64,000 nucleotides of DNA from Escherichia phage vB_EcoM-172859UKE1, in the sequence record MZ234025.1; one strand, given 5' to 3'. The position numbers were made by a program, and so were the translations under genes. The notes under the pieces were generated by a model. It saw nothing but the letters and a program-made list of their open reading frames with translations, was not told the DNA's origin and did no database searches. Within the stretch, counting starts at the first letter, position 1, and each line of letters starts with the position of its first letter. Shown here in pieces: positions 2,513 to 5,263 of this stretch.

Positions 2513-2571
2513 GTTTACATCTTCCTCTAGGCATGATATGATGAACTTACCCCAACCAAGAGGAAAACATT

Positions 2572-2946
2572 ATGAATATGTCTCAAGCAATTTTTACTGC
2601 AATCACCGAAAACACAACTGTTGAAGTAGTTTCTCCACTGGCAACCTACGTTATTCTTGCTCCTAAAACTATTGTATCTCGTATGGAAAACACAGGCAAA
2701 CGTATCGTACAAATAGTTGGAGCCGGAAATCAAAAACTTGATTATCTACGAACCATCAAAGCTTATGAACATTTCCAACTCGAAAAAGGTTCTCCTATTC
2801 AGGTAGAACTCGTAAATGGTGATATCGTTCGAGCAATGTTCCATCATTTCTATGCATTGAATGACCCATCTAAAGCGGTTCGTTTAATTGCATACGATGC
2901 AAACCAAAACGAAATCAACGCAGATATATCTAAATTACGTTTTTAA
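2572..2946 (+). CDS. hypothetical protein (124 aa)
   Basis: ORF with upstream SD (aggaaaacattATG); same strand as neighbours; no recognisable motif. Confidence 0.5.
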   Translation: MNMSQAIFTAITENTTVEVVSPLATYVILAPKTIVSRMENTGKRIVQIVGAGNQKLDYLRTIKAYEHFQLEKGSPIQVELVNGDIVRAMFHHFYALNDPSKAVRLIAYDANQNEINADISKLRF

Positions 2947-2996
2947 GTTTACTTCTCCAGTAGTTGTGTTATTATAGACCTATCAACTACTGGAGA
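2947..2996 (+). promoter_or_regulatory. Early sigma70-type promoter embedded in stem-loop (GTTTAC 2947-2952, TATTAT 2970-2975)
   Basis: 17-bp spacer; perfect 13-bp inverted repeat tctccagtagttg / caactactggaga flanks the -10. Confidence 0.6.
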
Positions 2997-3001
2997 ACAA
3001 A

Positions 3002-3319
3002 ATGAAAACCATCGATTGTAAAGCAGAATTTAAGATTTTTTATCACGGTTCAAGTAGTTCAGCTAACATCGAAAACATGCTTTGTCCTCCTGAGGAAACA
3101 GGAGTTCTGTCTGAAACTGGACGTAAGAAAAACTTGGATCGTGTATTCTTTACTGAAGATATAGGTTTAGCAAAGATTTATGCAGGACGAGCAGCACGCT
3201 CTTATGGAGGTGAACCACGTCTCTATCGAGTAATTTCTCCGGTAGATGTAGTTCAAATGAATGATACTAAAGGTGCTACAGTTTATCACGCTGAATGGGC
3301 ATTTTGCGAGGAAATATGA
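3002..3319 (+). CDS. small Arr-like ADP-ribosyltransferase candidate (105 aa)
   Basis: FYHGSS motif followed ~30 aa later by VFFTED and GEPRLYRV, resembling rifampin-ADP-ribosyltransferase (Arr) FYHGT...IYFS...YIYIVEP layout; SD ggagaacaaaATG; stop overlaps dmd start. Confidence 0.4.
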   Translation: MKTIDCKAEFKIFYHGSSSSANIENMLCPPEETGVLSETGRKKNLDRVFFTEDIGLAKIYAGRAARSYGGEPRLYRVISPVDVVQMNDTKGATVYHAEWAFCEEI

Positions 3320-3504
3320 GCAAATTAACTAAAGTTACTTTTATTGGCTGGTTTAAAAATGATAATATGTTCACTAAAGATATCATGTTATCAGGCGACC
3401 GTGAAGAAATCGAGTGGGTTGCGGTACAACTCGCTGAAGTGAACAGTGCACTTGTTAAAGCATTTCTTAATGATGAGAAAGTTTTCGAAGCAGATTTTCG
3501 ATAA
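3316..3504 (+). CDS. dmd: Dmd, antitoxin/discriminator of mRNA degradation
   Basis: MSKLTKVTFIGWFKNDNMFTKDI...EVNSALVKAF matches T4 Dmd (60 aa) as recalled; ATG 3316 preceded by gagga; ORF-track start 3295 is probably too far upstream. Confidence 0.8.
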   Translation: MSKLTKVTFIGWFKNDNMFTKDIMLSGDREEIEWVAVQLAEVNSALVKAFLNDEKVFEADFR

Positions 3505-3575: not shown

Positions 3576-3944
3576 ATGAAAAAATTAATCGCTTTAGCAA
3601 TGGTATTTGGATTAACCGGATGTGGTGCCCATGGCTTTATCCCTAATAACGTTGGCCAACTGATTTACAATCCGAATGTTAAACAATATGAACAACCTAA
3701 AGTTGAAGTGGAAGACCCGGTTACTGTAGGTAATCGAATGATTCAAGCTGATGCTCATGCTCAACGTTATCGTGATTCTGATACTGTAGCATTGTCAAAA
3801 GAACAACGCGTTAAAGAACATTGCTTACAGGCTACTGAAATCGCATTCATTCGCTATGTTGAAACAACCGGTAAAGAGCCTACCCAGAAACAAATCGCGA
3901 ATAACTACGTCCAGTGTATTGAACGTTTAAACAAATTTAATTAA
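3576..3944 (+). CDS. putative lipoprotein (signal peptide, lipobox LTGC)
   Basis: N-terminus MKKLIALAMVFGLTGCGA; strong SD gaggaaattgaaATG. Confidence 0.6.
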   Translation: MKKLIALAMVFGLTGCGAHGFIPNNVGQLIYNPNVKQYEQPKVEVEDPVTVGNRMIQADAHAQRYRDSDTVALSKEQRVKEHCLQATEIAFIRYVETTGKEPTQKQIANNYVQCIERLNKFN

Positions 3945-4317: not shown

Positions 4318-4611
4318 ATGAAAAAGTTATCATTGGCAGCAATCTTACTTGCAGTATCATGTGCACCGGCTCCAGTTACGGCAGGTTATGATAAAGACCT
4401 CTGTGAGTGGTCAATGACTGCAAATCAAGAAGATGTTGAACAACAAATCTTCTCTGATATCATGAACATCACTAAACGAGACCGTCCTAATATGGTTAAT
4501 AAAGTTGTTGAACAACTTAAGTCTGGCGGTAACATGCAGTACAACTATGTTTTGTATTGTGACCCTAATTTCGATAACAAAGATATCGTAACCGAAATCA
4601 CAGGTGAATAA
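4318..4611 (+). CDS. sp: Spackle periplasmic protein (superinfection exclusion)
   Basis: Signal peptide plus GYDKDLCEWSMTA...GGNMQYNYVLYCD matching T4 Sp (97 aa) as recalled. Confidence 0.85.
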   Translation: MKKLSLAAILLAVSCAPAPVTAGYDKDLCEWSMTANQEDVEQQIFSDIMNITKRDRPNMVNKVVEQLKSGGNMQYNYVLYCDPNFDNKDIVTEITGE

Positions 4612-4612
4612 C

Positions 4613-5263
4613 ATGATTTATTACATGCACAAAAATGCGCCATTTAAATATGGTAAATTTCCTAATGCGCAATGTTATAATATAACGCCGAATGAAAATA
4701 ATAACGGATATCATATTGGTGTAATTTTTGTAATTGTTAAAGATAACGAAATCGTTGCCTGGGCAGATTTTAAAGGTACAACATATGATGTTAATCCTGT
4801 GCCTTTCACATATTACAATATAATGGATTTGGCATATGATTATAATTGGTTTAATCATGACGCGTTGGTTCATATTGAAGGTGTAGGATTTGACATCTCC
4901 TATTCTAGCTATTCATTATGTCCTATGAGCCGAGCTCACGGTAAAGATGTATCATATCTTTCAATTCGGAAACGTGTAAACTTCAAACGTAGTACAGAGT
5001 ATGTTGGTGGACTCTTTGTTAAAGATAATAAAATAACCCGTATTAGTTATCCTCTAAGTGTAGGTCAAAAAGATGTTGATGTTGATTTAGACTTAACTGA
5101 AAATAACATTAATCATATTGCTTCTGTATATTTTGATATCGATGAAAAAATTGTAGTGTGTGGATACGAATTACCACCTGAAGAAAAGGCTGAAGCAATT
5201 GAAGTCGAATTAGAAATTTCTGTTGATGACCAAATATTTAATGCATTTATGAATCGAGGTTAA
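4613..5263 (+). CDS. hypothetical protein (216 aa; position of T4 61.2)
   Basis: ORF appears AT-rich by eye; ATG 4613 after aggtga; ORF-track start 4604 is GTG. Confidence 0.5.
   Translation: MIYYMHKNAPFKYGKFPNAQCYNITPNENNNGYHIGVIFVIVKDNEIVAWADFKGTTYDVNPVPFTYYNIMDLAYDYNWFNHDALVHIEGVGFDISYSSYSLCPMSRAHGKDVSYLSIRKRVNFKRSTEYVGGLFVKDNKITRISYPLSVGQKDVDVDLDLTENNINHIASVYFDIDEKIVVCGYELPPEEKAEAIEVELEISVDDQIFNAFMNRG

Follow-up and report, generated by a model that had tools for sequence, protein, structure and literature searches.

At positions 3002–3319 (+) of the window, i.e., the whole 64,000-nucleotide stretch analysed here from Escherichia phage vB_EcoM-172859UKE1 (sequence record MZ234025.1; one strand, 5′ to 3′), lies a gene for a 105-amino-acid protein belonging to phrog_2110. 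Searches, conservation and a structure model support the view that this protein is a divergent, stripped-down homologue of Arr, the rifampin ADP-ribosyltransferase, in which the core predicted to bind nicotinamide adenine dinucleotide (NAD+) has been kept. Being a minimal protein with a predicted ADP-ribosyltransferase (ART) fold, it is referred to as the window ART hereafter. In our judgement, it is rather probably an active mono-ADP-ribosyltransferase that uses NAD+ and is produced as soon as infection begins; its target would be conserved across the hosts or would be a small molecule.

The open reading frame (ORF) is a real, constrained gene and no chance reading frame. As stated in a preliminary description made from the sequence, it starts with ATG and encodes the motifs FYHGSS (residues 13–18), VFFTEDIGLAKIYAGRAA (residues 48–65) and GEPRLYRVISP (residues 70–80). 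Matches to the protein were found by tblastn in 609 phage records, 605 of which cover at least 80% of the query, and the identical protein is present on 320 contigs. Among 40 homologues of 60–89% identity, 25 columns are invariant. Between Mosigvirus and Dhakavirus-like loci, the ART is 85–90% identical, as compared with 64–68% for gp41 and approximately 62% for gp61: it is more conserved than the replicative helicase or primase.

The window derives from a T4-type phage; over this region, it shares approximately 97% identity with Mosigvirus genomes, PhAPEC2 and JS09 among them. Its genes run in the order uvsX, 40, 41, a 124-amino-acid ORF, the ART gene, dmd (3316–3504), several small genes and the primase gene 61. 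In T4, gene 41 is followed by a 58-bp gap and then by dmd, with no gene between them, which bears out the preliminary description in that the ART gene is missing at the equivalent T4 position. Since T4 dmd comes straight after gene 41, the 124-amino-acid ORF and the ART gene are both extra relative to T4. No match to the ART family was found in bases 1–50000 of T4, and the tblastn distributions suggest that it is absent from the remainder of the T4 genome as well.

The relation to Arr was examined with two alignments: the close-family alignment of the above 40 homologues and a wide-family alignment of 56 diverse sequences, hereafter referred to as A1 and A2, respectively. An exhaustive hidden Markov model search yielded 224 cluster representatives, many of which are domains of much larger proteins (hundreds to thousands of residues). 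When A2 was compared with the whole PDB, only Arr-ms (E-value 1e-3) and Arr-2 (E-value 0.014) matched, and hhalign of A2 against an Arr alignment gave a probability of 94.5% (E-value 7.7e-8, 74 columns). In addition, distant members of the family, found at E-values of 1e-21 to 1e-27, pass the Pfam Arr-ms model (PF12120; gathering threshold, 25 bits) with 26.9–29.4 bits in the matching region. In the alignments of A2 with Arr, H15 corresponds to His19 of Arr-ms, F49 to Tyr49, SE-GR to the E-x-G-R of Arr, and LYRVISP to IFIVEP.

The predicted structure points in the same direction. The AlphaFold2 model built from the family alignment (predicted local distance difference test score, 84.8; predicted template modelling score, 0.77) has six strands and one long helix. 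In a Foldseek search of the PDB with this model, two Arr-ms entries came out on top with a probability of 1.00 and 102–103 aligned columns; the predicted fold can thus be superposed on Arr. More generally, the model resembles ART folds, with Arr and Tpt1/KptA leading the matches and ParT-ParS being among them, and the third-ranking match among the BFVD viral models is a 94-amino-acid protein named 'Ms Rifampin ADP-ribosyl transferase'. The Arr-like reading of the preliminary description is therefore upheld, as homology and as fold, by the PDB matches of A2, the hhalign result and the Foldseek ranking. The profile and structure searches that it had proposed as a check did find an ART-fold match, with Arr on top, and the His-Gly of FYHG, whose conservation it had also named as a check, is invariant in both A1 and A2. 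The parallel that it had drawn with the IYFS strand of Arr is right as to the strand, but the Tyr is replaced by Phe (F49).

The conserved residues fall into four segments of the protein. The strand 1 motif FYHGSS (3038–3055, +) contains H15-G16, the predicted NAD+-binding His with its Gly. A basic loop, S37-E-T-G-R-K-K-N-L-D46 (3110–3139, +), is the most conserved segment: six of its residues (E38, G40, R41, K43, N44 and L45) never vary in A1, and two of these, E38 and R41, are almost invariant across the whole family. This signature loop, the part that aligns with the E-x-G-R of Arr and in which model confidence is low at residues 37–40, is a candidate substrate- or phosphate-binding element. 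Strand 2 and the following helix (residues 48–65; 3143–3196, +) contain F49 and the invariant Y60. Finally, E103-E104 in the last strand (3308–3313, +; codons GAGGAA), of which E103 is invariant in A1, may be the catalytic acid pair of the T4-type clade. Throughout A2, only H15, G16 and Y60 are invariant, and P30, E38, R41, F49, T51, A57, A61, G69, G70 and G91 are nearly so. Compared by sequence position with the H-Y-[EDQ] signature of ARTs, the window ART has the His (H15), carries Phe49 in strand 2, has its invariant Tyr (Y60) in the helix, and shows an invariant E103 in the T4-type clade only.

The codons of E103-E104 serve two functions in the window lineage. The Shine-Dalgarno sequence of dmd (GAGG; 3307–3313, +) falls inside them, and they are thus doubly constrained there. 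It was also observed that E103 is kept even in clades that have no ORF downstream of the ART gene.

Several results weigh against the reading of the window ART as an active homologue of Arr. Searched as a single sequence, the protein found nothing in Pfam (even at an E-value of 10), NCBIfam, PADLOC or the PDB sequences; it stays below the gathering threshold of the Pfam Arr-ms model, and its sole direct match is PHROG 2110, whose function is unassigned. A1 matched nothing in the PDB except complement factor I, at the chance level (E-value 1.3), and reached a probability of only 32.6% against the Arr alignment in hhalign. Because A1 alone reaches no more than this value, the homology to Arr is bridged through the distant members. 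As for catalysis, there is no defined strand position at which the whole family keeps an acidic catalytic residue: E103 is specific to its clade, many of the distant members, from polyvalent proteins, having K, R, V or I instead. The classical second-position Tyr is Phe in the window ART, and the counterpart of Asp84 of Arr is N87, in the variable region Q85-M86-N87. The protein is, moreover, slightly acidic with a net negative charge, and a nucleic-acid acceptor is therefore not favoured. A literature search for a biochemical or genetic study of this ART gene found none. The retrieved Arr sequences were mostly fragments with unreliable C-termini; for this reason, the pairing of the last two strands, in which E103/E104 would align with the V-G-E-L of Arr, is of low confidence and was not relied on.

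These deviations could mean that the protein is a non-catalytic binder, i.e., an ART fold used as a sponge for NAD+ or for an ADP-ribose-derived immune signal, with no transfer of ADP-ribose. Such a role would suit a very small protein with Phe at position 49 and no family-wide acidic catalytic residue, and the invariant H15, G16, Y60 and R41 are the residues expected for mere ligand binding. Arr and Tpt1, however, function without the canonical Glu, E103 is invariant in the T4-type clade, and the Pfam families found beside the Arr-like domain in polyvalent proteins are mostly enzymes. Furthermore, the second position is also occupied by Phe in AcrIF11, a phage ART of proven activity whose key residues are H-F-H-D and which has the catalytic D115/E116 (PMC11383003). 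Since this proven enzyme shares the Phe and uses such an acidic pair, the deviations of the window ART are compatible with activity, and we regard the binder explanation as improbable.

The invariant basic loop (GRKKN) raises another alternative, namely a Tpt1/KptA-like enzyme that would remove RNA 2′-phosphates or ADP-ribosylate the phosphate ends of RNA or DNA, serving RNA repair or counter-defence alongside Dmd. Two genomic observations agree with it: in Slopekvirus, RNA ligase 2 is encoded four genes downstream of the ART gene, and one polyvalent protein fuses the Arr-like domain with a 2H phosphoesterase. Nevertheless, the window ART matches only the NAD+-binding lobe of Tpt1. The N-terminal RNA-binding lobe, which bears most of the Arg-His-Arg-Arg tetrad of Tpt1, is impossible in 105 amino acids. 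The sole solved sequence relative is Arr and not Tpt1, the net charge is negative, and the RNA-repair context is inconsistent among the genomes. This alternative is thus also an improbable one.

The label 'rifampin ADP-ribosyl transferase' in a few GenBank records, those of Klebsiella phages, would make the protein a true rifampin resistance enzyme, and Arr is indeed its closest solved relative. However, the match is restricted to residues 13–81 of Arr-ms, the protein stops at residue 105 as against 143 in Arr-ms, it does not pass the Pfam Arr-ms model, and Tyr49 is lost. Inactivation of rifampin would also seem to bring no evident benefit to a lytic phage. This explanation is hardly credible.

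The region upstream of the gene suggests when the window ART would be made. A predicted T4-early-type promoter (2947–2975, +) consists of GTTTACT (− 35), a 16-nt spacer and TGT-TATTAT (extended − 10); it scored 9/12 in the consensus scan, with TG before the − 10 box, and ends 27 nt upstream of the ATG. The same GTTTAC...TAtTAT layout is found upstream of the homologous ART gene in other genera. In the window, promoter-like (G)TTTAC...TAnnAT sites occur at 2514, 2948, 3519, 3949 and 4260 (+), one before every small gene from gene 41 to gene 61, and the promoter scan gave 14 sites, as compared with 5.8 ± 2.6 expected. The region between these two genes resembles a series of early cassettes, each with a promoter of its own. 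Because the next promoter downstream (3519) comes after dmd, ART and dmd would form a two-gene early unit.

A 14-bp inverted repeat, in which 2953–2966 pairs with 2984–2997 (+), overlaps this promoter: its loop contains the − 10 box, and its 3′ arm the ribosome-binding site. The predicted RNA hairpin (2953–2997) has a folding energy of − 22.1 kcal/mol (z, − 4.14), and none of 200 shuffled sequences folded as well. The Shine-Dalgarno sequence of the ART gene (GGAG; 2992–2995, +) is 6 nt before the ATG. Upstream of the ART gene of other genera, there are analogous TCTCC...GGAGA pairings whose stems differ in sequence. From this arrangement, transcripts started farther upstream would bury the Shine-Dalgarno sequence, while those starting at ~2982 would lack the 5′ arm. 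The hiding of ribosome-binding sites in read-through transcripts is in line with known T4 practice. Two terminator candidates were also considered and rejected: the hairpin 2953–2997 has no T-run after the stem and carries the − 10 box in its loop, and a terminator-like site inside the ART ORF (3087–3104) is at the chance level.

The explanation that we favour, an active early enzyme, would work as follows. The ART gene would be the first gene of the early unit (ART, dmd) under its own T4-early-type promoter, and the hairpin 2953–2997 probably confines translation to the transcripts begun there. The retained core would comprise strand 1 with His15-Gly16, strand 2 (VFFT), the helix with Tyr60 and the LYRVISP strand, the C-terminal rifampin pocket of Arr being gone. 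NAD+ would be held by His15, Phe49 and Tyr60, and the loop 37–46 (SE-GRKKNLD) may bind the NAD+ pyrophosphate, the acceptor, or both. ADP-ribose would then be passed to a target conserved across the gamma-proteobacterial hosts, or to a small molecule, so as to assist takeover or counter-defence. The catalysis, the expression timing and the role of the loop are what we infer; the predicted fold, the homology to Arr, the conserved residues, the gene order and the phylogenetic distribution are what the analysis shows. A bolder version, which we hold to be unlikely, would make the window ART the smallest active ART known (94–105 amino acids), whose invariant basic loop would choose a non-protein acceptor, namely a nucleotide-type immune signal or the end of an RNA; it would serve immediate-early counter-defence beside Dmd, at the level of RNA or of the signal, and would represent a fourth, mechanistically distinct ART lineage of the T-even-type phages.

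The second gene of the predicted unit, dmd (3316–3504, +), encodes a 62-amino-acid antitoxin-like protein (Pfam PF17587, E-value 1.1e-20) that is 56% identical to T4 Dmd. Dmd is an established inhibitor of RnlA and LsoA. The stop codon of the ART gene (TGA, 3317–3319) and the start codon of dmd (ATG, 3316–3318) overlap as ATGA, and in a relative (L008) the equivalent ATG is the only possible start of the Dmd ORF. The translational coupling to dmd claimed in the preliminary description is therefore real as far as the overlap is concerned. The overlap does not, however, speak for a shared function: the partner downstream varies between phage lineages, and in these regions small early genes normally overlap.

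This variation is clearly seen in 62 ART loci from IMG/VR. Dmd is directly downstream of the ART gene in only 10 of them; in the others, the next ORF encodes a 55–60-amino-acid membrane protein (Slopekvirus-like loci), a 41–46-amino-acid Cys-rich acidic peptide, a lipoprotein-like or an unrelated protein, or there is no next ORF. None of these ORFs matches the Dmd model. The Cys-rich peptide, which replaces dmd at ~3318–3460 in four gene 41-ART loci (L016 and L021–L023), has two CxxC-like pairs (MEE.EC.VC...C.DC...EEE) and is zinc-ribbon-like. The phage distributions also differ, except in a subset of Escherichia, Shigella and Salmonella phages: Dmd was found in 797 phage records, nearly all of them of Escherichia, Shigella, Yersinia and Salmonella phages, while the 609 records with the ART include 116 of Klebsiella, 68 of Acinetobacter and 62 of Aeromonas phages, genera that are absent among the ten listed for Dmd. 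Given the 10/62 pairing and these differing genus distributions, each gene is common without the other. There is thus no conserved two-gene pairing across the family, T4 dmd itself standing alone, and the data argue against an obligate partnership: the adjacency is a lineage-specific arrangement.

These findings bear on a published proposal. Iyer, Burroughs, Anantharaman and Aravind (2022; PMC9503650) predicted a p0068-like ART of the H-Y-[EDQ] clade beside Dmd in phages of Escherichia, Shigella and Salmonella and described the two as a 'novel type-II T-A system'; the ART would be the toxin and the translationally coupled Dmd its antitoxin. Besides this proposal, the ATGA overlap within a single early unit, the recurrence of the ART-Dmd pairing in Mosigvirus and Dhakavirus-like phages, and the existence of ART toxins with small neutralising partners, such as ParT-ParS among the fold matches, are all in its favour. 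On the other hand, the pairing is rare among the IMG/VR loci, the ART is also carried by Klebsiella, Acinetobacter and Aeromonas phages, outside the genera listed for Dmd, and T4 dmd has no ART before it. In approximately 570 of the 797 records, Dmd is less than 60% identical to the window Dmd, and this holds for every T4-type phage listed. The inhibition of RnlA/LsoA already suffices as a role for Dmd. The toxin-antitoxin explanation is, in our estimation, distinctly improbable: as the general logic of the ART family it is not supported by the wider distribution, and it is conceivable for the Mosigvirus and Dhakavirus lineages.

Outside the small phage proteins, the Arr-like domain is deployed in giant polyvalent proteins of phages or mobile elements, where its partners include ART-PolyVal, the lambda-type portal, the 2H/Acb1 phosphoesterase, NUDIX, PcfJ, DUF7178, Toprim, GNAT and CHAP. 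In four metagenomic proteins (P0131, P0139, P0164 and P0186), a second, unrelated ART (ART-PolyVal) lies no more than a few hundred residues away from it, although the ART-PolyVal match of P0186 scores 26.9 bits and stays below the cut-off (31.2); in P0164, NUDIX follows. This suggests that the two ARTs of the polyvalent proteins act in tandem. In cellular genomes, the family is almost absent: at least 3 loci were found among 185,579 species, a lower bound since the scan used one peptide pattern. This near-absence and the polyvalent context fit an effector acting at the very start of infection. One of the 3 loci, on a contig of the Flagellimonas marina assembly (L071; NZ_JBHSCL010000010.1), has the appearance of phage DNA and carries at 2965–3282 a 105-amino-acid ART nearly identical to the Slopekvirus-type phage copies. 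Its flanking ORFs look phage-derived: for one of them, all residues shown agree with an ORF of the Slopekvirus-like loci L026 and L027. This copy may be phage contamination or a phage in that assembly.

Some neighbours of the unit were also characterised. The 124-amino-acid ORF at 2572–2946 (+), like the ART gene an insertion between gene 41 and dmd as compared with T4, belongs to phrog_10668, in which its function is unassigned; it has no match in Pfam, NCBIfam or PADLOC. It occurs in Mosigvirus loci, is missing from Dhakavirus-like loci, and has its own T4-early-like promoter-like site at 2514–2542 (+). The gene at 3576–3944 (+) encodes a DUF5481 protein with a lipoprotein-type signal (LTGC), called 'immunity protein' in some records, and differs from T4 gene 61.4, which occupies the same position. 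Farther downstream, 4318–4611 (+) is a homologue of spackle (66% identity) and 4604–5263 (+) one of T4 61.2 (67% identity); 61.2 homologues are reportedly connected with escape from the DarTG defence in RB69.

The prediction of an ART at this locus is already known. In UniRef, the exact protein is named 'ADP-ribosyl transferase' in 14 Mosigvirus entries; phage HX01 in RefSeq and several other records use the same name, and some Klebsiella phage records have 'rifampin ADP-ribosyl transferase'. The association with Dmd was published in 2022. The finding is thus a correct rediscovery of a predicted enzyme, and the suggestion of the preliminary description that a small ART outside the R-S-E (Arg-Ser-Glu) class is unfamiliar in T4-type phages did not hold, being preceded by the UniRef and GenBank/RefSeq names and by PMC9503650. 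What is added here are explicit tests tying the family to Arr and the observation that the published ART-Dmd toxin-antitoxin idea misfits the wider distribution. T4 is the classic system of phage ADP-ribosylation, yet its relatives carry an additional ART-fold gene that is unrelated and much smaller; no fewer than 609 sequenced phages have it. Identification of the target would reveal what a minimal ART recognises and could expose a new route of takeover or anti-defence. Experiments are easy to set up, because a closely related copy (same 90% cluster) is present in the BASEL phages Bas46 and Bas47.

Among the known systems, Arr (PF12120; PDB 2HW2, 9IAF and 9IBA) is the only solved protein reached by the family profile and the top Foldseek match. 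The two share the HG[ST] strand, the E-x-G-R loop, the [VI][FY]F[ST] strand, the next helix and the [IL][FY].V.P strand. They differ in length (105 amino acids as against 143–151 in Arr, with 143 in Arr-ms) and in that the window ART is without the C-terminal part of Arr forming the rifampin site, the sequence alignment covering only residues 13–81 of Arr-ms. The catalytic His19 in the HGT of Arr is kept as H15, while Tyr49, which is F49 here, and Asp84 are not; the roles of the latter two we take to be those given in the Arr-ms structure paper. The window ART is, moreover, phage-borne with a predicted early expression, unlike Arr. In view of its failure to pass the Pfam model, the end of the alignment at residue 81 and the two residues not kept, the window ART is no Arr proper.

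Two other solved ARTs are more remote. Tpt1/KptA (PDB 9LD3) has an RNA-binding N-terminal lobe that is missing in the window ART, and no match was found between them at the sequence level. AcrIF11 (PDB 6KYF) likewise has no detectable sequence relation to the window ART; its helical insert (approximately residues 51–107), thought to recognise Csy1, is missing here, and the T4-type phages and their hosts offer no hint of the type I-F CRISPR system that AcrIF11 targets.

The ARTs of T4 itself, Alt, ModA and ModB, resemble the proposed use of the window ART in being phage enzymes of early host takeover. However, they belong to the R-S-E clade, with Arg-Ser-Glu instead of the strand 1 His, are 2–6 times larger and have no sequence relation to it; the strand 1 Arg, strand 2 Ser-Thr-Ser and strand 5 Glu-x-Glu of that clade were not found in the window ART. 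A further parallel is the p0068-like ART with Dmd, described in PMC9503650 in the same arrangement as in the window, with the ART gene adjoining dmd in the same phage groups. From this matching description, that pair appears to be the gene pair of the window. The same authors set the p0068 family apart from the H-H-h clade, which is associated with RNA repair and small-molecule modification, whereas the nearest relative found here is Arr.
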